Positions 10,162 through 64,000 of a stretch of 64,000 bases of DNA are shown here, in pieces. Every line of letters begins with the position of its first letter. Position 1 is the stretch's first letter. Origin of the DNA: Syntrophomonadaceae bacterium (lineage in GTDB: Bacteria; Bacillota; PH28-bin88); assembly GCA_018333865.1 (NCBI GenBank), contig JAGXSE010000065.1:48794-112793 (forward strand). Direction: 5' to 3'. The position numbers and the translations under genes were made by a program. A model generated the notes under the pieces. It worked only from the letters and a program-made list of their open reading frames with translations, was not told the DNA's origin and ran no database searches.

Positions 10162-11652
10162 ATGAAACTGCCTGAGCTGTTAAAAGGCTTGCCGGTATTG
10201 GCTTCAAAAGGGGATCTGGAAGTTTTTATTCAATCCATCACTTATGATTCCCGCAAAGTTTGCTCCGGAGCCCTTTTTGTTGCTGTGAAGGGATTCAAAG
10301 TCGATGGTCATATATTCACTTCTGCTGCCGCAAGGGCCGGGGCCGCAGCCCTGGTGGTCCAGGAACCTATAGAAAACATTGATGACAGTGTGCCTGTGAT
10401 CAGGGTTGCTGACACCCGTTTTGCTCTGGGAATTTTATCGGCAAATTTCTACCGGTATCCCAGCCGGGAATTCCGGTTGGTTGGTGTAACCGGAACCAAT
10501 GGCAAGACAACCGTCACCCATCTGATTGAGGCAATTGCAGCTTACCATGGCATGCGGACCGGGCTAATTGGTACGGTTGGCAACAGAATTGCGGGCCGAT
10601 TGCTGTCATCAACTCATACCACGCCCGAGTCCCTGGATCTTCAGGACTTATTCCGGAAAATGGCTGATGAGAAGGTTCAGTATGTATCCATGGAAGTTTC
10701 ATCCCATGCGCTGGAGCTAAATCGAGTTGTGGGCTCTGAGTTTGATGCTGCTGTCTTCACTAACCTGACCCAGGATCACCTGGACTTCCATTCTGATATG
10801 GAGGCCTATTTTGCGGCGAAGGCTAAATTATTTTCCTCTTTAGACCAGGAAGCTTTTAAGCCAGGCCATAAATACGCTGTCATAAATGCTGATAGTGACT
10901 GGGGGAGGCGGCTGGCTGCAATGTCACCGGTTCCGGTTTATTCCTATAGCATTGAATCTGCCGCAGATGTTTCGGCCAGGGATATTTCCATCAATCTCAC
11001 AGGAGCTGCCTTTGATGTGGTTTGCAAAGAAGGATCTTTCCCTGTGAAATTGAAACTAACCGGAAAGTTCAGTGTTTACAACGCCCTGGCTGCCTTCGCC
11101 TGGGGCCTTGGCGAGGGCTTTCCTCCTGAGAGCATCTGTCAGGCTTTGGCAGGAGTGGCAGGTGCGCCGGGGCGTTTTGAAATGGTGAACTGCGGGCAGC
11201 TCTTTGGGGTTATTATTGATTACGCCCATACTCCTGATGGGCTGGTGAATATTCTTCAGACAGCTAAGGATGTTGCCCAGGGGAGGATTATAACCTTATT
11301 TGGCTGTGGAGGAGACCGGGACCGTAAAAAGCGGCCTCTTATGGGGGAGGCAGCTGCCCGTCTCAGCAATATTGTCATTGTAACATCCGATAATCCTCGC
11401 AGTGAAGATCCAGTGGGGATCATTGAAGAGATCCTGCCAGGGATTAAAGCCGCCGGCAATGAGGATTATCATGTAATACCAGATCGCTATCAAGCCATTG
11501 CGGCAGCAATAGATTTGGCTCAGCCAGGGGATCTGGTGATCATAGCTGGCAAAGGACACGAGAATTATCAAATAATTGGCCAGCAGACCCTGCCCTTTGA
11601 TGATAAAGAGGTGGCCTGTCGACTGTTAAAGGAAAAGGGGTATCAGTGTTGA
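10162..11652 (+). CDS. murE: UDP-N-acetylmuramoyl-L-alanyl-D-glutamate--2,6-diaminopimelate ligase
   Basis: Mur ligase P-loop GVTGTNGKTT; DNPR motif typical of meso-DAP-adding MurE; ATG 10162 chosen for AAGAGG RBS. Confidence 0.9.
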   Translation: MKLPELLKGLPVLASKGDLEVFIQSITYDSRKVCSGALFVAVKGFKVDGHIFTSAAARAGAAALVVQEPIENIDDSVPVIRVADTRFALGILSANFYRYPSREFRLVGVTGTNGKTTVTHLIEAIAAYHGMRTGLIGTVGNRIAGRLLSSTHTTPESLDLQDLFRKMADEKVQYVSMEVSSHALELNRVVGSEFDAAVFTNLTQDHLDFHSDMEAYFAAKAKLFSSLDQEAFKPGHKYAVINADSDWGRRLAAMSPVPVYSYSIESAADVSARDISINLTGAAFDVVCKEGSFPVKLKLTGKFSVYNALAAFAWGLGEGFPPESICQALAGVAGAPGRFEMVNCGQLFGVIIDYAHTPDGLVNILQTAKDVAQGRIITLFGCGGDRDRKKRPLMGEAAARLSNIVIVTSDNPRSEDPVGIIEEILPGIKAAGNEDYHVIPDRYQAIAAAIDLAQPGDLVIIAGKGHENYQIIGQQTLPFDDKEVACRLLKEKGYQC

Positions 11653-34953: not shown

Positions 34954-34985
34954 ACCTCTTATTGTACTTAGGAGTGGGTAGAGAA

Positions 34986-37814: not shown

Positions 37815-37911
37815 GGTGAAATAAAGCCAAATGTTTAAACGACTTAACTGAATTACTTTATTTTTGACCGAGCATACTAATTATCAGCAGCTGGCGGAAG
37901 GTGAAATCGGC

Positions 37912-38544
37912 ATGCTCAATTGCAAGGACCAGAATTTTGATAAAAGGCTCATCCCCATAGGTATCCCCGTTGGAATATCCAACAGGCATGTCCATTTGAC
38001 CCAACAGGATCTGGATGAACTGTTTGGTTCTAACCATCAATTAACTGCCTTTAAAAAGCTTTCCCAACCGGGAGAATATGCTTCCCAGGAAGTAGTCACT
38101 CTTGTTGGTCCCCGGGGAGTTTTGGAGGGCGTCAGGATCCTTGGACCTCCCCGCAGCTACAGCCAGATAGAAATTTCCATGACCGATGCCTATCGAATAG
38201 GGTTGCGTCCTCCGGTAAGGGATTCCGGAGAACTGGCAGGAACTCCCGGTATTGCCATTGTTGGGCAAAAAGGAGCCCAGGCTCTGAAAGAAGGAGTGAT
38301 CCTGGCCGCACGCCATATCCATATGAGTCCTGCCCAAGCTAAAGAACTGGGAGTACAAAAGGGTGACAAAGTTCTGGTCTACGTTAATGGGAAGCGAGGC
38401 TGCATTTTGGAAAATGTGCTGATTAGGGTCCACGAAAAATTTGTGCTGGAAATGCATATCGATACCGATGAAGCAAACTGTTCCCTGATCAAGAATGGCG
38501 ATGAAGTCCACATTGTCAGAAACGGCAATATTCTTCTGCAATGA
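37912..38544 (+). CDS. pduL: phosphate acyltransferase PduL family (paralog 1)
   Basis: Two PduL repeats with GISNRHVHL and ARHIHMS motifs; ATG 37912 with AAGGTG RBS (ORF track start 37864). Confidence 0.8.
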   Translation: MLNCKDQNFDKRLIPIGIPVGISNRHVHLTQQDLDELFGSNHQLTAFKKLSQPGEYASQEVVTLVGPRGVLEGVRILGPPRSYSQIEISMTDAYRIGLRPPVRDSGELAGTPGIAIVGQKGAQALKEGVILAARHIHMSPAQAKELGVQKGDKVLVYVNGKRGCILENVLIRVHEKFVLEMHIDTDEANCSLIKNGDEVHIVRNGNILLQ

Positions 38545-42197: not shown

Positions 42198-42230
42198 TAA
42201 ATCCAGACATTATTTAATTGAGGGGTGTTG

Positions 42231-42953
42231 CCGATGCAAATTGGGGTAGGGGTGTCTGCCAGGCATATTCATTTATCACAGCAGGATCTGGATAGTATAT
42301 TTGGAGCTGGTTACCAGCTGCAGCCAGAACGGCCGTTATCATTCACTACGCAGTTTATTGCCCGGGAACGGTTGCTCCTGAGAGGACCTAAAGGTGAATT
42401 GCGAAATGTTGCTTTGATTGGTCCGCCAAGACCAGCTACCCAAATAGAAATAACGAAATCTGATGGTTATGCCTTGGGGATTATTCCTCCGGTTCGCTTA
42501 TCCGGTAATTTACAGGGTTCTCCAGGGGTTACTCTTGTTAGCACCGAACGGGAAATATCTATATCGGCGGGACTGATTATTGCCATGCGGCATATCCACA
42601 TGACGGAAGATGATGCCGGGGAGCTGGGATTTCAACACAGAGACTTTGCGATGGTGGTTGCAAAAGGAGACCGTTCTTTGGTCTTTGACTTTGTTGTGGT
42701 CAGGGTGGATCCAGCCAATACCCACACAGAATTTCATATTGATACCGATGAGGCTAATGCTTCTGATTTGAAAACCGGTGATATGGTGGATTTACTCCAT
42801 GTTAATGACAAGAAACTCAGGTTAGAGCAGCTTATTAATATGTTTGATGAAAGGCAGCTAAAAATCTTGGAACAATCGATTTCAGTAATTGTTCAGGATG
42901 AAAAAAGACGCCTCACCATGATGGAGGATATGTTAAAACTGCTGCAGAGGTAG
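42231..42953 (+). CDS. pduL: phosphate acyltransferase PduL family (paralog 2)
   Basis: GVSARHIHLSQ and AMRHIHMT repeats; extra ~45-aa C-terminal helical tail. Confidence 0.8.
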   Translation, partial: PMQIGVGVSARHIHLSQQDLDSIFGAGYQLQPERPLSFTTQFIARERLLLRGPKGELRNVALIGPPRPATQIEITKSDGYALGIIPPVRLSGNLQGSPGVTLVSTEREISISAGLIIAMRHIHMTEDDAGELGFQHRDFAMVVAKGDRSLVFDFVVVRVDPANTHTEFHIDTDEANASDLKTGDMVDLLHVNDKKLRLEQLINMFDERQLKILEQSISVIVQDEKRRLTMMEDMLKLLQR

Positions 42954-45325: not shown

Positions 45326-47266
45326 GTGAAGATTTTGAAAAAGCAAAAAGTAATTCGGGTACGGGTTAATGGAAGTCTGGATGCTTTGACTGACATGCTA
45401 AAATACTATTTGTACCAGCAGCCTGGGCAAACAGCAGATAATCTTGTAGCCAGAGTCCTTGGGCGGTTAGTTACAAATCAAACTGCAGCAAAATTGGAGA
45501 AGCATGTCAGCCGGTGTCTGCATAAAAACCCAGCCTTTGAACAAACTTCCAATAACCGGTGGTTGTTGGATGCCAGGGGACAAAGGGGTAATGATCAGCT
45601 CTACCAGTGGCTGCAAACGGCGGGACAAGCTATGAATATAACGGAATTTAGACTCAAAGCTAAGGAGAGAGGAATTGACCCCGAACTGATTCAGGAAAAA
45701 GAACTGGTTACCGACAGCCGCTTTTTGCGCCTGAAAAATGGCAAATGGGCCTTGATCCACTGGGAAATCATCAGGCAGGCTTCTGCAAAGGAATTAGATA
45801 AAGCGATAGAGCAGATGCGCACTACCAGGCAGCCGATGGGTGTAGAAGAGATCGCCCGCAATATCTTAGGTCACGGTGCGGAAGGGACAGATCTTTTGGC
45901 ATGCCTGCAAAAAGATCCCAGGTTCGTATGGGTTGGTGGACATCATTGGTATTTAAGAGAAGCACTGCCAACCCCTGCAGATAGCGGTTCAGTTAGGGCC
46001 TTTGCCTTGGAACCATTCCGCAAGGCTGAAATCACGGCATTAGGTGAAGCAGAGCTGATGTTAATTTTGAACGATACCGATCCTAACTGCCGCGAATATA
46101 TCTTGTCTTCTGTAGATCTTGAGCGCGGCTCCTTAAGGATTACCAAACGGATGGACAGGTTATTTGCCGGGTTGCCGCCTGTAGCTTGGATTTCTTTCAA
46201 CACTCAGACTGGCCCTTTAGAGGCATGGTATCTCCGGATGGGCGGTTCAATACTGGGCTTTGCGCACTGGTTTCTGCAGAACGGCCTCGAGCCTGGCAGC
46301 AAGCTGCGATTAAAACGGGTAATGGGAGAAGAACGGGTATTTAACATAGAAATCACTGGAGAAAGAGAGGCCGAGGTATTTACTGAAGGGTCAAGGGTGC
46401 GTAAACTGGAGGATCTGTGGCGGAAGGCCCAAACAGAAAACTTTGCCTTGGAGCAATTGCTCTTAGAAGTCATGGAACTCTTCCCTGCCGGATTGCCGCA
46501 GGAAGAAGTTGCGCAGTTGATGGCAGCCTTTAAGACTGTTTCCCCGGAAGAGATCGGGCGGTTTATGGAAACAACACCATATTTTGAACGGACAAGTTCA
46601 GGAAATTGGCGCTTTAATCAGGCAATTTTTGAAACCTATCATAAGCTGACCAGAGAACTTTCTTTTATTAAGGATGAAATATCCCGCTCCCAGCAGGAGA
46701 TTGCCGCTACCCTGCAGGAGAACCAACAGCTGATTATGGAAAAAGAGGGCCTGTATGGTGAATTGATTTATCTTAAGAACCATCATCGGGATCAGGAATC
46801 TCAACTGCAGGAAAAAATACGCCGCTTAAAGGATCATCTGGAGGAATTGCAGCGGGAACATGCCAAGGCAAGGGCTGAACTGGAGAAACAGCTAAAACAG
46901 CGGGAAACACTGCAACAGGAACTGGAAAAGTCTAAGCAGCAGCTTCAGGTCCTCCGGGCGGATAGAGATAGCCTGAAGATAAAGACTGAGCAGCTTGAGT
47001 CAAGAATCTTGCAGCTTCAGGGCAATCTAAGCCGCTCCCGGGAAGAAATCGAGGAGCAGCATTTGCGGGTAAACCAGCGGTTAAAGGAACTGGAAGCAAA
47101 GCTCCATAACTCCGTCATATCTAACGATGACCTTGAGCGGACAGTGGTAAAGCTCCAGGAGGAGCGGCGCTTGTTAAAACGCCGGATGAACCATTGGCTG
47201 GTGCGCTGGGCCATCGCCCTCACCTCTGGGTGGCGGCAAAACGGCAATAACTTTTTGAAATCCTAA
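45326..47266 (+). CDS. hypothetical protein with tandem winged-helix (HARE-HTH-like) repeats and C-terminal coiled coil
   Basis: 646 aa; three to four repeats ending in RFLRLKNGKWALIHWE, RFVWVGGHHWYLRE, YFERTSSGNWRF; last ~200 aa heptad-rich. Confidence 0.5.
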   Translation: MKILKKQKVIRVRVNGSLDALTDMLKYYLYQQPGQTADNLVARVLGRLVTNQTAAKLEKHVSRCLHKNPAFEQTSNNRWLLDARGQRGNDQLYQWLQTAGQAMNITEFRLKAKERGIDPELIQEKELVTDSRFLRLKNGKWALIHWEIIRQASAKELDKAIEQMRTTRQPMGVEEIARNILGHGAEGTDLLACLQKDPRFVWVGGHHWYLREALPTPADSGSVRAFALEPFRKAEITALGEAELMLILNDTDPNCREYILSSVDLERGSLRITKRMDRLFAGLPPVAWISFNTQTGPLEAWYLRMGGSILGFAHWFLQNGLEPGSKLRLKRVMGEERVFNIEITGEREAEVFTEGSRVRKLEDLWRKAQTENFALEQLLLEVMELFPAGLPQEEVAQLMAAFKTVSPEEIGRFMETTPYFERTSSGNWRFNQAIFETYHKLTRELSFIKDEISRSQQEIAATLQENQQLIMEKEGLYGELIYLKNHHRDQESQLQEKIRRLKDHLEELQREHAKARAELEKQLKQRETLQQELEKSKQQLQVLRADRDSLKIKTEQLESRILQLQGNLSRSREEIEEQHLRVNQRLKELEAKLHNSVISNDDLERTVVKLQEERRLLKRRMNHWLVRWAIALTSGWRQNGNNFLKS

Positions 47267-50292: not shown

Positions 50293-51453
50293 CTAAAAAA
50301 TACTGGTCTCCTTAGGTTTATCGTTTCCACTACAGGAAAATCTGGCTGGGGACAGGCTCTTGATTTCCATGGAACGTACCTTTCTATCAACCAGCAGTTC
50401 AGCCAGTAGCAAGCCAATAGCTGGCGCATGCATGAAACCATGGCCGGTAAAGCCGTTAGCACAATAAAAACCTTCTGCCTCCTGCGCCTCCCCCAGGACA
50501 GGCTGGAAGTCGGGGGTAACTGACCTGAGCCCGGCATAGGCCTTGCTGATCTTTGCTTCGTTCAGGAGAGGTATTCGCTTAATTGCGGCTTGGGCGACCG
50601 TTTCCAAGCCGCTCCAATCGACAGAAATATCCATGCCCGGGGCTGTTGTTTTATCAGTACCCCCCATTAAAAGCTGCCCGTTTAGTTCTTGATGCAGGTA
50701 AAATCCGCTGTCCATATCAACTGTTAGGGGTATATTCCTGGGCAAGCTAGGGATGGGCTCGGCTACAAAAACCTGCCGCCGGTAGGGTGTTACCGGCAGG
50801 TTTACCCCTGCTAAACCGGCCACACTGGCGGCATAGGGGCCACCGGCATTGATGATCCTTGTTGTCGAGACAGTTTGTTTGCTGGTAATCACACGCCGGA
50901 CCTTCCCTTTTTCAACGCCAATGCCAATAACTGGTTCTTCAAAAAAATATTTGACACCAAGCCTTTTCCCGCTATTCAAATAGCCTTTAACCATTTCCGA
51001 TGGATCTGCAGATCCGTCAATAGAGCAAAAACTGCCCCCCTGAAGGTCAGTGGTGATCAGGTATGGAAACCGCCGGGCGATTTCATCCCTGTATAAAAGT
51101 TCAGAGGGTACGCCCAATTCTTGCTGTAGCAGAATATCCTTGGCAAACAATTCCATTTGCGCAGGGCAAGCAGTAACAAATAGGTAGCCGTTTTGCCGGT
51201 AGTTGATGTGATAGCCCATTTCTTCTGCAAAGGATTGAAAAAATGGGACACTCAGGAGAGAAAGCTGAATGTTTTCCCTGGCGGAAAATTGGTAGCGGAT
51301 GCCGCCGGTGCAGGCCGCCGTGGAACCGGTTCCTTCAAACTTTTCTTTTTCCAAAACAATGACCTTTAAGCCAGGGTCTTTTTTCTTCAAGTTATAGGCA
51401 ACGCTTAACCCAATGATTCCGGCTCCAATCACGACTACATCGGCCATATGCAC
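50293..51453 (-). CDS. FAD-dependent oxidoreductase (DAO family)
   Basis: N-terminal VVVIGAGIIGLSVAY dinucleotide fold, about 386 aa. Confidence 0.8.
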   Translation of the reverse strand: MHMADVVVIGAGIIGLSVAYNLKKKDPGLKVIVLEKEKFEGTGSTAACTGGIRYQFSARENIQLSLLSVPFFQSFAEEMGYHINYRQNGYLFVTACPAQMELFAKDILLQQELGVPSELLYRDEIARRFPYLITTDLQGGSFCSIDGSADPSEMVKGYLNSGKRLGVKYFFEEPVIGIGVEKGKVRRVITSKQTVSTTRIINAGGPYAASVAGLAGVNLPVTPYRRQVFVAEPIPSLPRNIPLTVDMDSGFYLHQELNGQLLMGGTDKTTAPGMDISVDWSGLETVAQAAIKRIPLLNEAKISKAYAGLRSVTPDFQPVLGEAQEAEGFYCANGFTGHGFMHAPAIGLLLAELLVDRKVRSMEIKSLSPARFSCSGNDKPKETSIF

Positions 51454-51650
51454 TGTGCGTCACTCCTAATCGACATGATATCCTCATCTTATACTTTACA
51501 ATGCTTTCCCGTCAACCCAATGTAATTCAGCATGATTAGATCAAACTCGCCTGGATCAGTCCGGACATTGGCTTGAGGCATGAAAGGATTTCGATTGCCG
51601 GATGCAGAAGTAACTATTAACGTCATTATTCTGGAGGGTGCAGATAAAAT

Positions 51651-52694
51651 ATGCAGTTTGATAAACCAGTACTGGCCATAGACGTGGGCGGAGGGACCCA
51701 GGATATTTTTTTATTTCAACCCGGTCAATCCGTGGAAAACTCTGTGCAGATGGTCCTGCCTTCCCAGACCCAGGTAATTGCCCGTCAGATCAGGGAAATC
51801 ACCGACAGACGAGAAGACCTGTTCCTGACGGGGAGTTTAATGGGCGGGGGGGCTTCCAGTTCAGCCATCCGAAAACACCTTGCCGCCGGGTGCCGGGTTT
51901 ATGCTAACCCTGAGGCCGCCAAAACCCTGGACGATGACCTGCATAAGGTGCGGGCAACGGGAGTTATAATTACTGAAAGCCAACCCAGAAACACTGTCTC
52001 AGTTACAATGGGCGATATCAACCTGCCGGCCCTGGCAGCGGCTCTAAAGACTTTTGCCGTTGAACTGCCGGAACAGATTGTGGTTGCTGTGCAGGACCAT
52101 GGGGAAAGCCCGGGCTTCAGCAACAGGTTATTCCGCTTCCAGCACTGGCAGCGTTTTGTAGCTGAAGGTGGTGATATCAGACGGCTTTTATACAGTGAGG
52201 TTCCCTCATACCTGACCAGGATGCTGGCAGTTAAAGCTTTGCTACCCCAGGCTTATCTGGCCGATACGGGTACCGCTGCCATTTGGGGGGCATTGGAAGA
52301 CCCGCAGGTGGCCGTAAAACAGGCTGAAGGGGTAATCCTGCTCAATGTGGGAAATCAGCATACGGTGGGAGTGCTGCTGAAAAAATGGCAAGTCTATGGG
52401 CTGTTTGAACACCATACCGGCTTGCTGAATTCTGGAAAGTTGATTGACTATATCGAAAGGCTCCGCATGGGAGCATTAACCCATGCCGAAGTATACCAGG
52501 ATGGCGGTCATGGCTGTTATATCAGCCCAGACTATAATCCGGCGTCAGGGTTTAATCTGGTAGCCGTCACCGGGCCAAGACGAGCCATGACATGGGGAGC
52601 TGGGTATTATTTGGCTGTGCCCCACGGCAACATGATGCTGGCCGGCGCCTTCGGACTGGTAGCAGCATTGGCTGCCCGACAAATAGAGCAATAA
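51651..52694 (+). CDS. ASKHA-fold protein (possibly DUF1786-like)
   Basis: N-terminal LAIDVGGGTQDIF phosphate-1-like motif; no Fe-S Cys motifs; assignment from memory. Confidence 0.4.
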   Translation: MQFDKPVLAIDVGGGTQDIFLFQPGQSVENSVQMVLPSQTQVIARQIREITDRREDLFLTGSLMGGGASSSAIRKHLAAGCRVYANPEAAKTLDDDLHKVRATGVIITESQPRNTVSVTMGDINLPALAAALKTFAVELPEQIVVAVQDHGESPGFSNRLFRFQHWQRFVAEGGDIRRLLYSEVPSYLTRMLAVKALLPQAYLADTGTAAIWGALEDPQVAVKQAEGVILLNVGNQHTVGVLLKKWQVYGLFEHHTGLLNSGKLIDYIERLRMGALTHAEVYQDGGHGCYISPDYNPASGFNLVAVTGPRRAMTWGAGYYLAVPHGNMMLAGAFGLVAALAARQIEQ

Positions 52695-53415
52695 AGCATA
52701 CAAATCGCAATATTTTATACTTGTCTGGGAAAAACATAAATAATAAGCTTAAAATTAAGAAGGATACAAGGAGGTTTTCACTATGTCTGTATTGGAGGAT
52801 ATCAAACAAGCAGTGATTGACGGGAACGCTCCCAAGGTGAAAGCTATAACTGAAAGAGCTCTGGTCGAAGGAATCAGTATTAACGACATCATCAACGAAG
52901 GCTTAATCGGTGGGATGAGCTATATCGGCGTCAGGTTTAAAAACAACGAAGTCTATGTGCCCGAGGTCTTGATTGCCGCCAGGGCGATGCATGCGGGCAT
53001 GGGTGTGATGAAACCTTTGTTAACGGGTGAAAATTTTCAATCTAAAGGCACCTTTGTAATCGGCACCGTAAAAGGTGATCTCCACGACATCGGCAAGAAC
53101 CTGGTGATCATGATGATGGAAGGAGCTGGCTTTAAGGTTGTTGACCTGGGGATAGATGTGCCAACGGAAAAGTTCATTAAAGCCATTGAGGAGCATAAAC
53201 CCCAGATTGTCGGGCTTTCAGCCTTGTTGACTACAACCATGGTCCAGATGAAAAACACCATTCAAGAACTTAAGCCTTACCGCAATGAAATCAAAGTGAT
53301 GATCGGCGGAGCGCCGCTAACCCAAAAGTTTGCCGATGAAATCGGCGCCGATGCCTATGCTCCGGATGCGGCTACTGCTGTCGAACTGGCGACAGAACTT
53401 CTGGCTTCATAGCTG
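52695..53415 (+). repeat. direct repeat copy 1 (corrinoid-protein gene plus upstream element)
   Basis: About 95% nucleotide identity by eye to 56480-57193 across the coding region; upstream shares ACAAATCGCAATAT...ACTTGTCT. Confidence 0.8.
52783..53412 (+). CDS. cobalamin-binding corrinoid protein
   Basis: 209 aa; B12-binding motif GDLHDIGKNLV (DxHxxG) and Rossmann-like domain; AAGGAGG RBS. Confidence 0.85.
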   Translation: MSVLEDIKQAVIDGNAPKVKAITERALVEGISINDIINEGLIGGMSYIGVRFKNNEVYVPEVLIAARAMHAGMGVMKPLLTGENFQSKGTFVIGTVKGDLHDIGKNLVIMMMEGAGFKVVDLGIDVPTEKFIKAIEEHKPQIVGLSALLTTTMVQMKNTIQELKPYRNEIKVMIGGAPLTQKFADEIGADAYAPDAATAVELATELLAS

Positions 53416-53432: not shown

Positions 53433-54227
53433 GTGCTGGTTGTCGGCGAATTAATCAATTCTACCCGTAAAGCCATTGCCCAGGCCCTGGAGCAAAGAGA
53501 CCAGGCTTACCTGCAGGATTTGGCCCGGCGCCAGGTAGAGGCTGGCGCTTTGATCATCGATGTCAATGCGGCAATCGGTGGTAATGAAGCTGATCGCATG
53601 AAGTGGCTGGTAGAAATCGTGCAGGAAGCGGTGGGGGTGCCTCTTTGTATTGACAGTCCAAGTGCTGCTGCTATTGAGGCCGGTCTGGCCGTCTGCCGGG
53701 AAAAAGCCATGCTGAACTCCATTACGGCAGAAGACTACCGTTGGAACGAACTCTTGCCAGTTGTGCAAAAGTACAAGCCCCGCGTAATCGCCCTTTGTAT
53801 GGGTGACGGACCAATGCCTGAAACTACCCTTGACCGCCTGCGGGAAGCAGAAAAACTGGTGCCAGGCCTGGTGGCTGCGGGCATCCCGATTGAGGACATT
53901 TACCTTGATCCATTAATTAAACCCCTGGGGGTTAATACTAAACATGCTATGGAAGCCTTAGAAAGCACCCGTGCCTTACGCCTGGAATATCCCGGTGTAC
54001 ATATTATCTGTGGTTTATCCAATGTTTCTTTTGGCCTGCCAGAGCGTCGCCTGTTAAACAGAGCCTTTATGGTGATGGCAATTTCCTCTGGCATGGATGC
54101 CCTTATTATGGATCCCCTGGATCACCCTACCATGTCCTTCTTAGCGGCTGCCAGGGCTTTAGTTGGGCAGGACGAATACTGCCTGGAATACATTGCCGGT
54201 GTCAGGTCAGGAAGGGTTAAGGCTTAG
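53433..54227 (+). CDS. pterin-binding methyltransferase (methylcorrinoid:tetrahydrofolate type, MtrH/AcsE-like)
   Basis: 264 aa DHPS-like barrel; GELINS start, IDVNAA and HIICGLSNVSFGLP segments. Confidence 0.7.
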   Translation: MLVVGELINSTRKAIAQALEQRDQAYLQDLARRQVEAGALIIDVNAAIGGNEADRMKWLVEIVQEAVGVPLCIDSPSAAAIEAGLAVCREKAMLNSITAEDYRWNELLPVVQKYKPRVIALCMGDGPMPETTLDRLREAEKLVPGLVAAGIPIEDIYLDPLIKPLGVNTKHAMEALESTRALRLEYPGVHIICGLSNVSFGLPERRLLNRAFMVMAISSGMDALIMDPLDHPTMSFLAAARALVGQDEYCLEYIAGVRSGRVKA

Positions 54228-54259: not shown

Positions 54260-55405
54260 ATGGGAGCACTAACCCCGCGGGAACGGGTCCGGCGGGCACT
54301 AAGTTTCCAGGAGCCTGACCGGGTTCCCACCGATGTGGGAACCAGTGCAGCGACAGGGATCACCCTGGGGGCTTATGAGCAATTAAAGCAGTATCTAAAG
54401 ATGCCTGATGCTACTGGGAGCGTAAATCACTTGATGTTTCAGACGGTAACGGCAGATCACCGGGTGCTGGAAAGGCTGGGAGTGGATTTCCGTCCGGTAT
54501 ACTATCGCCCGCCTGCCGAAAACAAGGGTATTTGGGGGCCTGATGACACTTTTGTCACAGAATGGGGGTTTACTGTCAAACGGCCTGAAGGCGGCCTGTA
54601 TTATGACATTATTAAAAGCCCATTGCTAGAGGCAGAAATAGAAGACCTGGACAGGTATCCCTGGCCGGATCCCCATGACCCAGGCCGGATCGCCGGAGTG
54701 GCTAAAGAGGCCAAGGAACTCTACGAGCAGACAGATTATGCAATATTTGGCCCGGGCATGGAAGGCGGATTTTTCGAGCTTTCCTGGTATTTAAGAGGAA
54801 TAGAGCGCTTTTTTATGGACCTAATCGAAAACAAAGAGTTTGTCCACGCCCTGTTCCGGAAGCTTTTGGATTATCGCAAGGCTTTATTGGGACGTTATCT
54901 TGATGCAGCAGGAAAATACCTGGATGTAGTGTATTACGGGGACGACATCGCCATGCAGACCGGCCCTTTGATGTCTTTAGGGCTCTACCGGGAGCTGGTC
55001 AAGCCCTATCAAAAAGAGCTGTTCAGTTTTATTAAAGAAAAGACCGAGGCCAAGCTCTTCTACCACACCTGTGGCAGCGTGGTAAAGTACTTGGACGATC
55101 TGATCGAGATCGGGGTTGATATCATTAACCCCGTTCAGGTCAGCGCCAAGGATATGGATACTGCCAGGTTAAAGCAAAGCTATGGCCATCGGCTGGTATT
55201 CTGGGGCGGGATCGATACCCAGCATGTCTTGCCTTTTGGTACAGAAGAAGAAGTAGAGGAAGAGGTAAAAAGGCGGATTAAAGACCTGGCTCCGGGCGGC
55301 GGCTATGTCTTGGGGCCTGTGCATAACGTCCAGCCTGACGTGCCTCCCCAGAACCTGGTGCGAGTTTTCCAGGCCGCCAGCCAGTACGGTGTTTATCATA
55401 GATAG
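54260..55405 (+). CDS. URO-D/MtaA-family methyltransferase (substrate:corrinoid type), copy 1
   Basis: 381 aa with PDRVP near N-terminus and HTCGS, GGGYVLGPVHNV segments. Confidence 0.8.
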   Translation: MGALTPRERVRRALSFQEPDRVPTDVGTSAATGITLGAYEQLKQYLKMPDATGSVNHLMFQTVTADHRVLERLGVDFRPVYYRPPAENKGIWGPDDTFVTEWGFTVKRPEGGLYYDIIKSPLLEAEIEDLDRYPWPDPHDPGRIAGVAKEAKELYEQTDYAIFGPGMEGGFFELSWYLRGIERFFMDLIENKEFVHALFRKLLDYRKALLGRYLDAAGKYLDVVYYGDDIAMQTGPLMSLGLYRELVKPYQKELFSFIKEKTEAKLFYHTCGSVVKYLDDLIEIGVDIINPVQVSAKDMDTARLKQSYGHRLVFWGGIDTQHVLPFGTEEEVEEEVKRRIKDLAPGGGYVLGPVHNVQPDVPPQNLVRVFQAASQYGVYHR

Positions 55406-55659
55406 CTACCCGCTCTAATCCCCCCACTAGTTGGGACATTCCTTTAAAGCGGCGGGATAAGAGCGGTTACGCTACACAAAGTTGGGGACATTCCTGTCCC
55501 AAAAAAATGGCCTGAGCTTCAGCAGGTGTGTCCCCGTTCCTTTTATCTGGCTCTAAGCTTCAGTGGGGGTAGTAATCCCCCCTCTGAAGCCAAGACCCAG
55601 TTGAACCAATCAGATTATAGCCCCTTCGATAGCTTAAAATAACCCAAGTATAAAACAGG

Positions 55660-55695
55660 CTGGAAGTGCCTTCGCCTAGGCGAAGGCACTTCCAG
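55660..55695 (+). repeat. 36-nt perfect inverted repeat (hairpin)
   Basis: CTGGAAGTGCCTTCGCC-TA-GGCGAAGGCACTTCCAG; no T-run on the plus side, T-rich on the minus side. Confidence 0.7.
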
Positions 55696-55723
55696 CAATT
55701 CTCATGGCCTCTAGCAACGCAGA

Positions 55724-55751
55724 TTGCATTTTTCGCCATTTCCTTTATAAT
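55724..55751 (+). promoter_or_regulatory. sigma-A-type promoter for the small two-gene cassette
   Basis: TTGCAT at 55724-55729, 16-nt spacer, TATAAT at 55746-55751. Confidence 0.45.
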
Positions 55752-55809
55752 CTAAGATAGCAGTGGTATGATGTCAAGCAACTAAATAGTATACCAAGGG
55801 GGTGTTTTT

Positions 55810-56067
55810 ATGGTTCCGTCACCCAAAGTTAAGAAACATCTCAGTGAGATCAAAAGAGAGCAGTGGACAGAGGCGGAATTGAGAGAGCTGCTCAAAGCCA
55901 TTGCCCGGGATTTCCAATTGCAAATCGAGATATCCGGCGAATCTGCAGATGATGATTTTTGGGCACTCACCCCGGATGAGGATCAGCATTTCAATGACCT
56001 GCTGGTCAAATCAGCGAGAGACACCAAAAATAAGTGTTTTACCGAATACAGTAGGCCGCAGCTCTAA
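55810..56067 (+). CDS. small acidic protein (antitoxin-like)
   Basis: 85 aa; acidic C-terminal half; ATG with AAGGGGG RBS; 2 nt from the next ORF. Confidence 0.3.
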   Translation: MVPSPKVKKHLSEIKREQWTEAELRELLKAIARDFQLQIEISGESADDDFWALTPDEDQHFNDLLVKSARDTKNKCFTEYSRPQL

Positions 56068-56069
56068 TC

Positions 56070-56396
56070 ATGCGCAGAAAGATCAGATTTCGCAGAACTC
56101 ATACCTATAATGAGGAATTGTTAAACATCCGGGAATTCAACCGGGAATTGGCCGAACAGATTGAAGAAAAGCGAGAGTATTTTGAGCGTTGCCTGACCAA
56201 TCCCCCTTACCTTCCGTCACCAGGCCTCAACATGGAGACACTGGAGGGTAAAATTACCCGGCCCGATTGGCTGAGAGGGTACCCTAAACTATACAGCTTC
56301 AGGGTGAATAAATATGCCCGAGTAATTTTCTGGTGGGCTGAAGACGGAACATGCGAGTATTTATTTCCTTTTGCCAAGCATTACAGAAGAAGTTGA
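56070..56396 (+). CDS. small basic protein with RelE/YoeB-like C-terminal pattern (toxin-like)
   Basis: 108 aa; C-terminus YSFRVNKYARVIFWWAEDGTCEYLFPFAKHYRR fits the RelE/ParE/YoeB core pattern. Confidence 0.3.
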   Translation: MRRKIRFRRTHTYNEELLNIREFNRELAEQIEEKREYFERCLTNPPYLPSPGLNMETLEGKITRPDWLRGYPKLYSFRVNKYARVIFWWAEDGTCEYLFPFAKHYRRS

Positions 56397-56423
56397 AGCT
56401 TCCTGCGAGGGAGGCTTTTTTTT
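56397..56423 (+). terminator. rho-independent terminator
   Basis: Stem AGCTTCC/GGAGGCT (one G-U) followed by TTTTTTTT. Confidence 0.6.
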
Positions 56424-56479
56424 CAGTTCTTCAAAATGCTGGCTAACATTAAACACCAAAAAAGCAAAATAACAAACAA

Positions 56480-57193
56480 ATCGCAATATATTGAACTTGT
56501 CTTATGGAAGGCAAAGGCAGTAGTATTAGATTAAGGAAAGGACTACAAAGGAGGTATTTGATACCAGTGTTGGAAGATATCAAGCAAGCAGTGATTGACG
56601 GGAACGCTCCCAAGATGAAAGCTATTACTGAAAGAGCACTGGCCGAAGGAATCAGTATTAATGACATCATCAACGAAGGCTTAATCGGCGGGATGAGCTA
56701 TATCGGTGTCAAGTTTAAAAACAACGAAGTATATGTGCCCGAGGTCTTGATTGCCGCCAGGGCAATGCATGCAGGCATGGGTGTGATTAAGCCCTTGTTA
56801 ACTGGTGAAAATTTTCAATCTAAAGGCACCTTCGTAATCGGCACCGTAAAAGGTGATCTCCACGACATCGGCAAGAACCTGGTGATCATGATGATGGAAG
56901 GCGCCGGCTTTAAGGTAGTTGACCTGGGGATAGATGTACCAACGGAAAAGTTTATTCAAGCGATCGAGGAGCACAAACCCCAAATTGTCGGGCTTTCAGC
57001 CTTGTTGACCACAACCATGGTCCAGATGAAAAACACCATTCAAGAACTGAAGCCTTACCGCAATGAAATCAAGGTGATGATCGGCGGAGCGCCGGTTACC
57101 CAAAAGTTTGCCGATGAAATCGGAGCCGATGCCTATGCCCCCGATGCGGCCACAGCTGTAGAACTGGCGACAGATCTACTGGCTTCATAGCTA
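56480..57193 (+). repeat. direct repeat copy 2 (corrinoid-protein gene plus upstream element)
   Basis: Near-identical to 52695-53415; see copy 1. Confidence 0.8.
56567..57190 (+). CDS. cobalamin-binding corrinoid protein, copy 2
   Basis: GTG 56567 aligns with copy 1 N-terminus (VLEDIKQAVIDG); same GDLHDIGKNLV motif; AAGGAGG RBS. Confidence 0.85.
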   Translation: MLEDIKQAVIDGNAPKMKAITERALAEGISINDIINEGLIGGMSYIGVKFKNNEVYVPEVLIAARAMHAGMGVIKPLLTGENFQSKGTFVIGTVKGDLHDIGKNLVIMMMEGAGFKVVDLGIDVPTEKFIQAIEEHKPQIVGLSALLTTTMVQMKNTIQELKPYRNEIKVMIGGAPVTQKFADEIGADAYAPDAATAVELATDLLAS

Positions 57194-57360: not shown

Positions 57361-57415
57361 TATGCAATAAAAAGTTTGAATATTATGAGATTTTAAGAAC
57401 GGAGGCTTGCTAGGC

Positions 57416-58513
57416 ATGACCGAAATGAAACCTAGGCAACGTGTCTTAACAGCATTAAACTTAGGAGTTCCAGATAGGGTTCCATTTATGGAAAGTGCTA
57501 TAGATGAGATTTTACAGGTTCAATTAATGGGCAGAGATAATTTTACCCCAGATGAGCTATGTGAAAAATTGGGATTGGATGCTTTTGGTTATGACTATCC
57601 TGCTACCGGTGGAGAGCTAGGAACAGGGGAAGTTGCAAGGGGTATAACCACCCATGATGTATATTACTTTCCTAAAAGAATAACTTTTGATTTCCTGCCT
57701 CCGTGGATCGCTGATAAAGGAGAGGGGGTGGCGGGGCGTAGTTTTATAAAAAAAGGATTGCTAACCGATAATGATTCCATTGCACTATTTGATAAATTTC
57801 TTCCCGATCCCCATCACCTAGCCCGATACGACATTGTTTCTGATTGGATATCAAAATACAAAAAAGACTATGCGGTTTTTGCCCGCATTCGGCTGGGTGC
57901 AGCTCCCACGATTAATAGCATGGGCTTTGAGGAGTTGTGTTACAAAATTTTCGACAACCCCAATTTAGTTAAGGAAGTACACAGGAGGTTTTCTGAATGG
58001 ACGGCTCAGGTTATTCAGCACCTAAATAAAATGGACTTTGATTTTATTTGGGCGGCTGACGATATAGCCGATAATAAAGGTCCTTGGTTTTCACCAGCGA
58101 TTTTTCAAGAATTCTTTTTACCGTATATGAAGATTGCAGCCGATGAAATTAAGAAACCATGGGTCTTTCACAGTGACGGTAATTTGTTCCCTATTATGGA
58201 TGATTTGTTATCCTTGGGGATGCAAGGCATCCACCCATTGCAGCCTGCTGCAATGGACATTGTAAAAATGAAGGAAGATTACGGCCACAGGGTATGCCTT
58301 GTTGGTAATATCGATCTTGATTATACATTGACCCGGGGAACACCTGAAGAAGTGGAAGAGGAGGTTAAACAGCGGATTGAAACGATTGGCCAGAAAGGAG
58401 GTTATATTGTTAGCAGTGCTAATAGTCTAGCTTCATATGTAAAACCGGAGAATGCCTTAGCTTTGGGGCAAGCAGTCAAAAAGTACGGAAAGTATCCCTT
58501 AATTATTGATTGA
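57416..58513 (+). CDS. URO-D/MtaA-family methyltransferase, copy 2 (divergent paralog)
   Basis: PDRVP N-terminal motif, HSDGN and GGYIVSSANS segments; distant from copy 1. Confidence 0.8.
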   Translation: MTEMKPRQRVLTALNLGVPDRVPFMESAIDEILQVQLMGRDNFTPDELCEKLGLDAFGYDYPATGGELGTGEVARGITTHDVYYFPKRITFDFLPPWIADKGEGVAGRSFIKKGLLTDNDSIALFDKFLPDPHHLARYDIVSDWISKYKKDYAVFARIRLGAAPTINSMGFEELCYKIFDNPNLVKEVHRRFSEWTAQVIQHLNKMDFDFIWAADDIADNKGPWFSPAIFQEFFLPYMKIAADEIKKPWVFHSDGNLFPIMDDLLSLGMQGIHPLQPAAMDIVKMKEDYGHRVCLVGNIDLDYTLTRGTPEEVEEEVKQRIETIGQKGGYIVSSANSLASYVKPENALALGQAVKKYGKYPLIID

Positions 58514-58614: not shown

Positions 58615-59712
58615 ATGAGTAAACCTGAAAAAAGAAAATATATGTTAGCTTTATTGTTAATGGTTTTGTTAACAGTAGTGTTTTTTAGTGCAGGCTGTGC
58701 ACCCAGAGATCAGAAAGCTGCGGAAGGACCACCAGCACCAGCTCAAAAAGAGAAACATACCTGGGAAATGCAGTCTTGGACTTGGCCTGGCTTGGAACCT
58801 AAGCATAGTATAGTCCATGATTTTGCCAAAAGAGTGTACGAGGCATCTGGTGGTCGCCTTGAAATCATCATGCATCCACGGGAAGCGGTTGTGCCGGGTT
58901 GGGAGGCTACTGAAGCAGTAGGAAGGGGCATATTAGACATGTCCTTTGAGTGGCCAGGAGTTATGGCAGGGAGATGGGGGGATGTAGGCTTTAATCTTTT
59001 TTCGCCTCCTCCCATGTCCCTCCGAGAAGGTTGGCAGGTAACTTCCTGGTTTTACGACTGGGGTGTGCTAGATATAATGCGGGAAGCATTCGCTAAACAC
59101 AATGTTTATGTTGCTGGTATAACCTTTTGGCAACAAGAGAGCTTACATTCCAAAAAGCCAATTCGAGGAATCGCAGATCTACGAGGAGTAAAAGTCAGAA
59201 CCCCTCCAGGCATAACTTCGGACTTTTTTAGAGCGTTGGGAGCCTCTCCAGTTGTTTTGCCTCCGCCTGAAATTTATTCATCATTGGATAGAGGGGTAAT
59301 TGACGCTGCTGAGTGGGTAACTCCAGTCGGAAACTTTGCCTCAGGTTTCCAAGAAGTGACTGAATACGTGCTTTGGCCATCACCACATCAAGAATTTGCT
59401 ACTGTATATGTAGCAGTAAACATGGATTCCTGGAATGCATTATCTCCTGAACTCAAAGCTATATTTAAGGGAGCTTTAGCGGAGTTTTCCTGGAGGCATG
59501 CATACGAACCTTATTTAGCGGATTATCAAACAATTAAGAAATATATTGCAGCAGGAAATGAACATATTCAGTGGTCTGATGCAGAATTAAAAAAGGCACG
59601 AATAATTGCCAGAGATTTATGGCGTTCTTATGGTAAACAAAGCCCACTTGCAGCAAAATTGGTAGAAAAGCTTGAGTCATATCTGAAAACGATCGGAGAA
59701 ATGCCTGAATAG
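58615..59712 (+). CDS. TRAP transporter substrate-binding lipoprotein
   Basis: Signal peptide with lipobox FSAGC; about 340-aa mature domain; directly upstream of DctQ/DctM-type permease genes. Confidence 0.65.
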   Translation: MSKPEKRKYMLALLLMVLLTVVFFSAGCAPRDQKAAEGPPAPAQKEKHTWEMQSWTWPGLEPKHSIVHDFAKRVYEASGGRLEIIMHPREAVVPGWEATEAVGRGILDMSFEWPGVMAGRWGDVGFNLFSPPPMSLREGWQVTSWFYDWGVLDIMREAFAKHNVYVAGITFWQQESLHSKKPIRGIADLRGVKVRTPPGITSDFFRALGASPVVLPPPEIYSSLDRGVIDAAEWVTPVGNFASGFQEVTEYVLWPSPHQEFATVYVAVNMDSWNALSPELKAIFKGALAEFSWRHAYEPYLADYQTIKKYIAAGNEHIQWSDAELKKARIIARDLWRSYGKQSPLAAKLVEKLESYLKTIGEMPE

Positions 59713-59747
59713 CAACTTGTTTTTAGCTCAAATCAAGTAGAACTATT

Positions 59748-59788
59748 GGAGGAGGGAAGGGATGCCTTGTCATTTTTATCCCTCCTCC
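59748..59788 (+). other. intercistronic stem-loop
   Basis: 10-bp perfect stem GGAGGAGGGA/TCCCTCCTCC with a 21-nt loop. Confidence 0.5.
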
Positions 59789-59885
59789 AAACTCTAAGTT
59801 TAGCGGTTGAAAGGAAGTCCTGCTAAAAATATTTTCAAAGCACCCGATGGGCATCTTTGAGTAAAACAGAGGAGGGATGAATAAC

Positions 59886-60383
59886 ATGGGGTATTTTTTT
59901 CGCCTCGTAGATATGACAAACGAATTGGTCGGCAAATTGATGAGCATCATCGTTGTTGCAACAGTGTTGATTATTACTTTTGGAGTGATCATGCGGTATA
60001 TTTTTAAGTCACCTATTCCGGTAGTTTTTGAGTTAACCATATATCCTCTTGCAGCAGTATATGCACTTTCGACTGGTTACGCACTTCTCCACAACGCCCA
60101 TGTAAATGTCGACGCAATAATCCACAGATTATCGCCTAGACACAGACTTATACTGGCCTTTGCGACCTTTCCGGTTTTTTTGGTTTTTTGTGCTGCGCTG
60201 ATTTGGAGCGGATTCCCGTGGGCATGGCATTCGTTTTTAATAAATGAAACAAGCGGGTCGTCGTGGAGCCTAAAATTATACCCATATAAGTTTGCACTGC
60301 CAATTGGAGCAGTATTGTTGCTCCTTCAAGGTACGGTTAACTTGATCCGTCAGATGGATCTAACTAAGAAAGCTTCAAAATAA
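59886..60383 (+). CDS. TRAP transporter small permease (DctQ-like)
   Basis: About 165 aa, four TM helices; ATG 59886 chosen for GGAGGG spacing. Confidence 0.65.
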   Translation: MGYFFRLVDMTNELVGKLMSIIVVATVLIITFGVIMRYIFKSPIPVVFELTIYPLAAVYALSTGYALLHNAHVNVDAIIHRLSPRHRLILAFATFPVFLVFCAALIWSGFPWAWHSFLINETSGSSWSLKLYPYKFALPIGAVLLLLQGTVNLIRQMDLTKKASK

Positions 60384-60457
60384 TGGCAGTGTCGAGTATG
60401 GTGTATGTTTGGGATCCGGGTAAGGTTGCAGTGTTAGAAAGGTAGGCATCGGATGAA

Positions 60458-61777
60458 ATGAATATTGAATTGATTACATTAGTTGTTATTATATCTTTCC
60501 TAGGTCTATTAATGGCGGGAGTGCCCATGGCCTTTACTATGGGTGGGAGTGCGATAGTTTTAACCCTTATTTTGTGGGGGCCAGACTTTATTCCCCTGAT
60601 TCTTATGCGCATTTTTGAACAGATGGCAAGTTATACTTTTGTGGCAGCACCAATGTTTATTTTTATGGCTTCGGTCTTAGAGCGAATTGGTGTCGCAGAG
60701 GAATTGTTTGAAGGGATATACTCCTGGATCGGCTCTATCCGCGGAGGTTTAGCGATAACTGTTGTGATCGCATGTACTATTCTAGCTGCTATGGTGGGCA
60801 TTATTGGGGCGGGTATTGTATTAATGGGGTTAATTGCCCTACCTCAGATGCTGAAACGTGGGTACGATAAAAACCTAGCAACGGGAACCATCATGGCCTC
60901 AGGTTGTCTAGGAATTCTAATTCCCCCCAGTATATTATTCGTCGTCTATTCTATGGTTGCTGGCGTATCTGTAGGGAAGCTGTTTGCAGGAGCTATAATC
61001 CCTGGGCTCATGCTTTCTTTCGCGTACGTATTATATATTACTATCAGATGTTATTTAAATCCAAAAATAGGTCCTGCTGCCAATGAGAAAAACTTGGAAC
61101 CTATTTCTATAAAAAAGAAGTTAATGCTTTTGAAAAATCTTATTGCCCCCATGCTTTTAATAGTAACTGTTATGGGCAGCATTTTTTTTGGGATTGCAAC
61201 CCCTACAGAAGCAGCCGGCGTAGGAAGTTTTTGCGCGCTTTTAATCGCGGTTGCCCGGGGTAAGCTTAGTTTTCTTATGCTGAAAGAAACTGCGATGCAA
61301 ACAGTCAAGGTATCAGCGATGATCATGTGGATAATTTTTGGTGCAACAGCCCTAATTTCTGTGTATACCCGCGCCGGTGGAGCTAGATTTATGGAAGAGG
61401 TTATCCATGCATTGCCTCTAGGACCATGGGAACTTTTTATTGCGGTACAAATGCTATTTTTTATTATGGGATTTTTTCTCGATTGGATTGGCATTCTTAT
61501 GTTAACAGGCCCACTTTTAATACCGATAATGGCTGAGATAGGATTTGATCCTCTATGGTTTGGTATCGTGTTTGCGCTTAATATGCAAATGGCTTTTTTA
61601 ACACCGCCATTTGGCCCAGCGATGTTTTATATGAAAGGTGTAGTGCCTGCCGAGATTAAAATTACAGATTTGTATCGGGCTGTCATTCCTTTTATTTGTC
61701 TGCAGTTGCTAGTTCTGATTATCGTCATTTTATATCCATCACTTGCCCTATGGCTGCCAGCGAAGTTATTCCCTTAA
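60458..61777 (+). CDS. TRAP transporter large permease (DctM family)
   Basis: 439 aa, about 12 TM helices, typical DctM pattern. Confidence 0.9.
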   Translation: MNIELITLVVIISFLGLLMAGVPMAFTMGGSAIVLTLILWGPDFIPLILMRIFEQMASYTFVAAPMFIFMASVLERIGVAEELFEGIYSWIGSIRGGLAITVVIACTILAAMVGIIGAGIVLMGLIALPQMLKRGYDKNLATGTIMASGCLGILIPPSILFVVYSMVAGVSVGKLFAGAIIPGLMLSFAYVLYITIRCYLNPKIGPAANEKNLEPISIKKKLMLLKNLIAPMLLIVTVMGSIFFGIATPTEAAGVGSFCALLIAVARGKLSFLMLKETAMQTVKVSAMIMWIIFGATALISVYTRAGGARFMEEVIHALPLGPWELFIAVQMLFFIMGFFLDWIGILMLTGPLLIPIMAEIGFDPLWFGIVFALNMQMAFLTPPFGPAMFYMKGVVPAEIKITDLYRAVIPFICLQLLVLIIVILYPSLALWLPAKLFP

Positions 61778-63624: not shown

Positions 63625-64000
63625 GTGAGACCAGATAAGCCTGATTTTGAAAGAATAAAAACAGCTCTATATTGCAAAGAGCCTGACAGGGTACCATTGG
63701 CCGAGTTAATTATAGATCCTAAAGTAAGAGCTGGATTTATGGGCAAACCGGTTGACGACATCAAGACGAATGTGGAATTTTGGGCCGCAGCTGGATATGA
63801 TTATATTATACTATCGAAAGGATTGCTTGAACCTGGGCATGTGTTGGAAGGTACAGCAGTCCAAAAAACAAGAAGTGAAACAAGCCTTTATGGAAATGGA
63901 GTTGAAGAGAGAGATTGGGCTAATTTGCATGAAGGTGTCATAAAAACCGAAGCAGATTTTGAAAAATTTAATTGGCCTGATCCTGATTCATTGGATTACT
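63625..64000 (+). CDS. URO-D/MtaA-family methyltransferase, copy 3 (5' partial, runs off window)
   Basis: GTG 63625 with AGAGAGGTG RBS; N-terminus VRPDKPDFERIKTALYCKEPDRVP parallels the other URO-D paralogs. Confidence 0.6.
   Translation, partial: MRPDKPDFERIKTALYCKEPDRVPLAELIIDPKVRAGFMGKPVDDIKTNVEFWAAAGYDYIILSKGLLEPGHVLEGTAVQKTRSETSLYGNGVEERDWANLHEGVIKTEADFEKFNWPDPDSLDY

Follow-up and report, generated by a model that had tools for sequence, protein, structure and literature searches.

The subject of this report is a protein of 347 residues with the ASKHA ATPase fold, encoded in a stretch of 64,000 nucleotides from a Syntrophomonadaceae bacterium (contig JAGXSE010000065.1, positions 48,794 to 112,793; referred to as the window), where its gene immediately precedes an island of corrinoid-dependent methyltransferase genes. 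The following observations suggest, with slightly better than even confidence, that the protein is an orthodox, ATPase-fold member of the DUF1786 family encoded in the genomic backbone, that its link to the corrinoid genes is positional, and that its likeliest role lies with the molybdenum/tungsten (Mo/W) cofactor. A preliminary description of this DNA had noticed the protein by its IDVGGGTQD motif, upstream of the island and divergent from an FAD oxidoreductase. That description has been borne out, as has its remark that the ASKHA fold is present without an Fe-S module. Its proposal that the protein might be a ferredoxin-less variant of the enzymes that reactivate Co(II) corrinoids is not supported, whereas its fallback, a kinase-like protein unrelated to them, is closer to the evidence: the protein belongs to an ASKHA family unrelated to the RACE activators.

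The window protein is an ordinary DUF1786 member. A comparison with the family model, which the preliminary description had recommended, gives a match to PF08735 over the whole profile (positions 1-252 of 252), with a score of 293 bits where the cut-off is 25, and an E-value of 2.2e-87. The 90% database contains 2,284 matches with E≤1e-5, and at 50% identity there are 1,196 clusters; the family is spread over anaerobic Bacteria and Archaea. Most members are single-domain proteins of 340-370 residues, and in the alignment of close homologs identity is at least 50% between Bacillota, Chloroflexota and Desulfobacterota. Within this branch of the Actin_ATPase/ASKHA superfamily, the window protein has the usual length and single-domain architecture, and its position beside corrinoid genes is the only feature that sets it apart.

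The window protein has the two-lobed, duplicated RNase-H-like fold of ASKHA proteins, and it carries every family-invariant residue found in alignments of 25 close homologs and of 107 divergent representatives (28-48% identical to it). The phosphate-1 loop, D11-x-G-x-G-T16-x-D18, is invariant, with D11, G13, T16 and D18 each conserved in at least 95% of the divergent representatives, and the phosphate-2 region is atypical (NxGNQHT). In the same representatives the invariant core further contains D149-H150-G151, R162, R190, D205, G234-N235-H237, E253/H255, G286/G288 and G308-P309. This core is unusually rich in His, Asp and Arg, a polar active-site signature. Judged from its residues, the window protein is most likely an ATP-dependent enzyme.

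No Cys column is conserved among the divergent representatives, so that DUF1786 proteins would be unable to bind an Fe-S cluster. The two Cys residues of the window protein are both unconserved, and the protein has no Fe-S motif. These findings also bear on the Pfam label of PF08735, "putative pyruvate formate-lyase activating enzyme". The Fe-S cluster of radical-SAM enzymes requires Cys ligands; as DUF1786 lacks the conserved Cys needed for such a cluster, the label is unsupported and misleading. The family has neither a solved structure nor an NCBIfam model, and sequence and profile searches of the PDB with the protein and with the family alignment return noise only (Hsp31, E about 0.3). The searchable full-text literature mentions neither DUF1786 nor PF08735, nor COG3894. 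One 614-residue representative, P0141, has a His-rich tract, HDHDHDHGHSHGHDHGHSHGHDHDHDHHHHH, directly N-terminal to its DUF1786 domain, reminiscent of a metallochaperone tail. The tract is unique among 270 sequences, and the metallochaperone hint was dropped.

DUF1786 is a distinct ASKHA family and not a variant of RACE. The proteins used for comparison were ten genuine RACE proteins from corrinoid loci, of the domain architecture Fer2, RACo_linker, Raco_middle and RACo_C_ter. Alignment of the DUF1786 profile to these ten with hhalign gives a probability of 0.9%. All ten controls contain Raco_middle and five contain RACo_linker, whereas the window protein has neither and consists of a single domain. 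The profile comparison with RACE that had also been recommended gives no match to RACo_C_ter (PF14574), nor to any other ASKHA Pfam model, even at E≤10; the sole weak similarities are stretches of 25 residues around the phosphate-1 loops of EutA and FtsA. An Fe-S domain for electron input defines the known corrinoid activators (PMC8630106). The window protein contains neither the N-terminal 2Fe-2S domain nor the C-terminal 2x[4Fe-4S] domain of this kind, and it is also much shorter than RACE (347 against 517-637 residues). The likeness to RACE, RamA and RACo is that of the superfamily fold, together with a corrinoid neighbour found only in the window genome and one relative. DUF1786 likewise lacks the bridging [4Fe-4S] cysteines of the HgdC/BcrAD-type electron activators. 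Its resemblance to these proteins and to the diol-dehydratase reactivase DdrA is at the level of the superfamily only, because the scores are no better than those with FtsA, PilM and PanK-III. That the protein falls with confidence into an ASKHA family that has no relation to RACE is the very outcome that the preliminary description had named as refuting its activator proposal.

A census of gene neighbourhoods leads to the same view. At least 535 species carry a DUF1786 relative, and 80 loci, each from a different GTDB species, were scored for neighbouring genes by targeted tblastn. Genes of corrinoid systems (B12-binding, MeTr, URO-D and MttB) lie within 300 bp of the DUF1786 gene in a single locus, that of a relative 85% identical to the window protein (L010), and within 3 kb in three. 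In the other two of these, L035 and L066, a GntR regulator or a solute-binding protein intervenes, and MoaB or MoeA directly adjoins DUF1786. Unbiased clustering of the open reading frames (ORFs) of the 80 loci shows no dominant neighbour. In the reciprocal direction, 80 metagenomic loci were taken around homologs of the corrinoid protein of the island (595 kb, only 28 loci being at least 8 kb long); canonical RACE genes occur in them 11 times, and DUF1786 is absent. Recurrent co-localisation with corrinoid genes is thus a hallmark of RACE that DUF1786 does not share.

The position of the gene is explained by the history of the chromosome. A Firmicute dcw/sporulation-sigma/ileS region makes up the first half of the window, and the order dksA-lspA-rluD...N6_N4_Mtase...coiled-coil protein upstream of DUF1786 is common to the window and Moorella. 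This is the ileS-lspA-rluD-pyrR region that is classical for Firmicutes, as in B. subtilis. In Moorella and Neomoorella species (54-56% identity) the genes run ABC-2, in some cases TatA, DUF1786 and pyrR, and corrinoid genes are absent. In the relative L001/L011 (63% identity) a CoA-transferase and a lactamase_B gene stand between DUF1786 and pyrR, and a gene of the DAO family of FAD oxidoreductases lies upstream on the opposite strand. The closest relative (L005/L010, 85% identity) has the same divergent DAO gene, then DUF1786, the corrinoid protein and MeTr, followed by pyrR-pyrB-pyrC-carAB-pyrF. Since the rluD...pyrR gene order is shared with these Moorella-like relatives, DUF1786 is a vertically inherited backbone gene of the ileS-dksA-lspA-rluD...pyrR interval of Moorella-like Bacillota.

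BLASTN aligns the window colinearly with L010, at about 82% nucleotide identity, from 43.8 kb to position 54223 at the end of MeTr. Two differences are seen. Between amylase and ArAE, L005/L010 have a pair of ABC/ABC-2 transporter genes, which is missing from the window. From 54224 onward the window holds at least 9.8 kb that L010 does not have, comprising two URO-D genes, a TRAP transporter, a 2-hydroxyacid dehydrogenase and the second corrinoid gene, and the window ends at position 64000 without reaching pyrR. In L010 only the corrinoid protein and MeTr, with no substrate-specific methyltransferase (MT1), stand between DUF1786 and pyrR. In one sub-lineage, then, the corrinoid cassette stands between DUF1786 and pyrR.

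The corrinoid genes also appear to have a control element of their own. The spacer of 88 bp between DUF1786 and the first corrinoid gene contains an imperfect inverted repeat of 26 nt, ACAAATCGCAATAT(N)TT(NN)ACTTGTC, whose pattern is matched twice where no match is expected; the second match precedes the second corrinoid gene (Table 1). The repeat is perfectly conserved before both genes and, with the ribosome-binding site, in L010 (about 11060-11085), and the flanks have diverged. The duplicated unit consists of the corrinoid gene together with about 100 bp upstream of it (52679-53414 and 56455-57192), and the second copy is preceded by a terminator-like hairpin on the plus strand (56395-56418). 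The repeat is a candidate regulatory element, probably an operator or promoter of the corrinoid unit. As the cassette sits between the backbone genes DUF1786 and pyrR with its own upstream element, its adjacency to DUF1786 is best described as positional rather than functional.

By combining these observations it is possible to weigh the proposal that DUF1786 is a ferredoxin-less corrinoid activator. According to it, the ASKHA protein would bind the Co(II) corrinoid protein and use ATP so that another protein, a ferredoxin or a flavoprotein such as the divergent DAO enzyme, could reduce it. The gene does stand next to the island, and no Fe-S activator is found with it. The Pfam scan of all window ORFs of at least 225 residues detects no RACE, RamA or ferredoxin, and a six-frame motif scan finds no Fe-S ferredoxin signature in a real ORF, so that the corresponding remark of the preliminary description holds across the 64 kb. 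A RACE-like ORF is likewise missing from the DUF1786 neighbourhoods L001-L089. Such an absence is, however, normal: activators are commonly encoded away from operons of MT1, corrinoid protein and MT2, and cdmBCA of A. dehalogenans uses one of four activating enzymes encoded elsewhere (PMC13222342). In addition, the adjacency is missing from 77 of the 80 species-level loci, those of Moorella included, the profiles are unrelated, DUF1786 has no site for a redox cofactor, and orthologs 55-58% identical to the window protein are fused to MoaD or stand beside MoeA. Taken together, these findings make the activator proposal very improbable. The island is an ordinary three-component system of MT1, corrinoid protein and MeTr, with a TRAP transporter and an activator that is not encoded locally. 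By analogy with such systems, its Co(II) corrinoid would most likely be reactivated by a canonical Fe-S RACE encoded at another site of the genome.

Across the family, the only genes that are concentrated beside DUF1786 are those of the Mo/W cofactor. Genes for this cofactor lie within 300 bp of DUF1786 in 16 of the 80 census loci. This distance class holds 19 such genes, which is a density of 4.07 per 10 kb of the flank available; farther away the density is 0-0.25 per 10 kb. MoeA is a same-strand neighbour in both gene orders, MoeA-DUF1786 and DUF1786-MoeA, at distances of -41 to +122 bp, and in other Chloroflexota AOR and two ThiS/MoaD-like genes precede DUF1786. In the Dehalococcoidales protein P0022 a MoaD-like domain ending in ...FPPVGGG is fused to the N-terminus of DUF1786, and in L008 a MoaD gene (...FPPVAGG*) ends 4 nt before it. 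MoaD-like partners are confirmed only for P0022/L006, L008, L060 and L090; a search of the 80 loci for small GG-terminated ORFs beside DUF1786 gave spurious matches only.

The association is also found in distant relatives. Methanohalarchaeum thermophilum (L090) has DUF1786 followed by MobB-MoaE, MoaD (...FPPVSGG), ModE and a molybdate/tungstate ABC transporter, with MoaC and MoaB 7 kb upstream. In a metagenome-assembled genome of Hodarchaeales (L094) DUF1786 is divergent from, and 46 bp away from, a moeA-moeA/PBP-ABC transporter-moaC-moaB-moaE cluster, and in one further distant contig MoaB lies 2.5 kb away. Conserved adjacency to, or fusion with, Mo/W genes thus occurs in several lineages of the family. 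A "tungsten cofactor biosynthesis" neighbourhood that includes MoaD, AOR, MoeB, MoaE and MoeA has been described, with no ASKHA component listed and DUF1786 not named (Iyer et al. 2006, PMC1779556). The partners of DUF1786 in Chloroflexota and archaea (MoaD, AOR, MoeA, MoaB and MoaE) coincide with that neighbourhood, whereas no such gene adjoins DUF1786 in the window or in other Bacillota.

Because orthologs that are 55-58% identical to the window protein are fused or adjacent to MoaD, MoeA, MoaB and AOR, there is about an even chance that DUF1786 acts in the synthesis or maturation of the Mo/W-pterin cofactor, where it would perform an ATP-dependent step. We infer that the same role may be transferred to the Bacillota ortholog in the window.

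Several points weigh against this interpretation. All 16 adjacent cases of the census are Chloroflexota, so that the independent events are few, about five arrangements when the archaea are included, and two of the five distant contexts (Helarchaeota and Muiribacteriota) are without molybdenum cofactor (Moco) genes. No Mo/W-cofactor gene adjoins DUF1786 in the window or its Bacillota relatives. The Pfam-scanned ORFs of the window contain no Moco gene at all, and AOR in Bacillota comes only to within 2-8 kb of DUF1786 (L011, L014 and L027). No Moco riboswitch is found in 36 Bacillota and Desulfobacterota DUF1786 loci or in the window, so that regulation provides no link between DUF1786 and Moco in the lineage to which the window belongs. 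The neighbours in Bacillota are different ones (pyrR, an ABC-2 transporter, the DAO oxidoreductase and an FFTR-type thioredoxin reductase), and Desulfobacterota show PNP_UDP_1, acylphosphatase and LigA instead. Finally, the stretch that separates DUF1786 from the corrinoid gene showed no terminator, so that the two could be co-transcribed in this genome.

These heterogeneous neighbourhoods are what would be expected if DUF1786 were a housekeeping enzyme of the ASKHA fold, be it a small-molecule kinase, a phosphotransferase or another kind, acting for example in nucleoside or 5-deoxyribose salvage or in acyl-phosphate metabolism, and unrelated to both corrinoids and Mo/W. The Moco adjacency in Chloroflexota and archaea would then be a lineage-specific coincidence or a secondary link. 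In line with this possibility, 7-9 Bacillota loci have pyrR directly downstream of DUF1786 and six Desulfobacterota loci have PNP_UDP_1 upstream of it, an acylphosphatase gene lies within 3 kb in 12 of the 80 loci, and nine loci have a neighbouring gene for a thioredoxin reductase of the FFTR type. PanK-III and ROK sugar kinases are among the solved structures nearest in fold, and identity of at least 50% across phyla suits an enzyme of central metabolism. However, none of these four neighbours crosses a phylum boundary, and the adjacency of pyrR is accounted for by the ancestral rluD-pyrR synteny. The Mo/W genes, on the other hand, recur in Chloroflexota (in two gene orders and in the AOR/MoaD type), in a halophilic methanogen and in an Asgard archaeon, and a MoaD-DUF1786 domain fusion exists. 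A housekeeping enzyme of this kind is therefore the less likely explanation, although a serious one.

The thioredoxin reductase gene is found mostly in Bacillota, downstream of DUF1786 in L033, L039, L051, L056, L072, L087 and L089 and divergent from it in L052 and L076. This "TrxB-like" neighbour was considered as an AOR-associated pyridine-disulfide oxidoreductase, but it comes closest to thioredoxin reductase of the FFTR, or ferredoxin-dependent flavin, type (6gna, E 1e-82), and it was therefore not counted as a Mo/W gene. L003 has genes for a glutaredoxin and the catalytic subunit of FTR 4 kb upstream of DUF1786, so that a thiol-redox theme (thioredoxin reductase, glutaredoxin, FTR) recurs around the family. 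In Desulfobacterota (L037, L040, L044, L045, L048, L049 and others), and also in L003, PNP_UDP_1 is typically upstream, and either acylphosphatase, or LigA and then acylphosphatase, downstream.

If the Mo/W role is correct, one more specific activity may be imagined, although it is speculative and rather improbable. Acyl-phosphate chemistry is typical of the ASKHA acid kinases, such as acetate and butyrate kinases. DUF1786 might be such a "kinase", which would convert the carboxylate of the Gly-Gly end of MoaD to an acyl-phosphate and so activate it for thiocarboxylate formation. Strict anaerobes would then have in it an alternative to MoeB, or an adjunct, that is not of the E1 type. Such an activity would tie together the MoaD fusions, the Methanohalarchaeum cluster and the acylphosphatase and thioredoxin reductase neighbours.

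The features of the locus are collected in Table 1. The ribosome-binding site GGAGG of DUF1786 is at 51633-51637, 13 nt 5' of the start. In the divergent intergenic region promoter-like matches are no more frequent than in shuffled sequence and no Rfam element is present; a scan for promoters and terminators around the DUF1786 gene likewise does no better than on shuffled sequence. The DAO oxidoreductase scores best with the glycine oxidase ThiO, at 143 bits where the cut-off is 251, and with sarcosine oxidase beta, and its divergent pairing with DUF1786 is limited to one sub-lineage (the window, L010, L011 and L015). ThiO ordinarily partners the sulfur carrier ThiS. By analogy, a ThiO-like gene beside DUF1786 might be an intriguing echo of the MoaD/ThiS link.

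Table 1. Positions of the DUF1786 gene and of the surrounding features in the window
Feature	Position	Strand	Remarks
DAO-family FAD oxidoreductase	50293-51453	-	ThiO / sarcosine-oxidase-beta-like; below all NCBIfam cut-offs
Divergent intergenic region, DAO gene/DUF1786	51454-51650		197 bp; from the sequence
DUF1786-family ASKHA protein	51651-52694	+	347 residues, ATG start; ORF checked
ASKHA phosphate-1 loop AIDVGGGTQD	51675-51704	+	residues 9-18; from alignments
26-nt imperfect inverted repeat	52700-52725	+	DUF1786-corrinoid spacer; second copy 56476-56501, before corrinoid copy 2
Corrinoid (B12-binding) protein, copy 1	52783-53412	+	PF02310 + PF02607; MtgC/pyl_corrinoid-like, below cut-offs
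Methyl-THF:corrinoid methyltransferase (MT2, MeTr)	53433-54227	+	Pterin_bind; NF005719, 331.9 bits, cut-off 259
URO-D-family (MtaA/CmuA-like) methyltransferase	54260-55405	+	probable substrate-specific MT1; absent from relative L010
Corrinoid protein, copy 2	56561-57190	+	recent duplicate, 96% amino acid / 89% nucleotide identity
Second URO-D-family methyltransferase	57407-58513	+	
TRAP transporter DctP/DctQ/DctM	58615-61777	+	probable substrate uptake for the island

For the second corrinoid gene, the start of the listed ORF at 56504 is probably over-extended, and the start homologous to that of copy 1, probably the real one, is the GTG at 56561. The 2-hydroxyacid dehydrogenase gene follows the TRAP transporter. 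The two methyltransferase modules are separated by a spacer of 1.1 kb (55406-56503), which looks like an insertion or duplication junction. It contains two small adjacent ORFs, 55810-56067 (85 residues) and 56070-56396 (108 residues), possibly a toxin-antitoxin-like pair, and a perfect hairpin with a stem of 17 bp on the minus strand (55659-55696).

Farther upstream, a protein of 646 residues (45326-47266), whose C-terminal half forms a long coiled coil, is without a Pfam domain and is syntenic in relatives (643 residues in L005, 640 in L001 and 546 in Moorella L002). Two genes for PduL-type phosphate propanoyltransferases (PTAC) lie within 5 kb of each other (37864-38544 and 42225-42953), and no other microcompartment genes were seen. 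A T-box leader before ileS is usual in Firmicutes. At the gathering threshold, Rfam has no match in the whole 64 kb, whether a Moco or B12 riboswitch or another cis-regulatory RNA, and thus no T-box leader before ileS (34962-37772).

For annotation, the consequence is that the ASKHA gene beside this corrinoid island should not be labelled as a new type of activase. The association of DUF1786 with Mo/W-cofactor genes appears to be unreported in the searchable literature and offers a modest, testable lead. If DUF1786 does perform a step in the synthesis or maturation of the Mo/W-pterin cofactor, it would be a further component of a pathway that is considered essentially complete, and it would bear on the maturation of tungsten enzymes such as AOR and FDH in acetogens, syntrophs, Chloroflexota and archaea.

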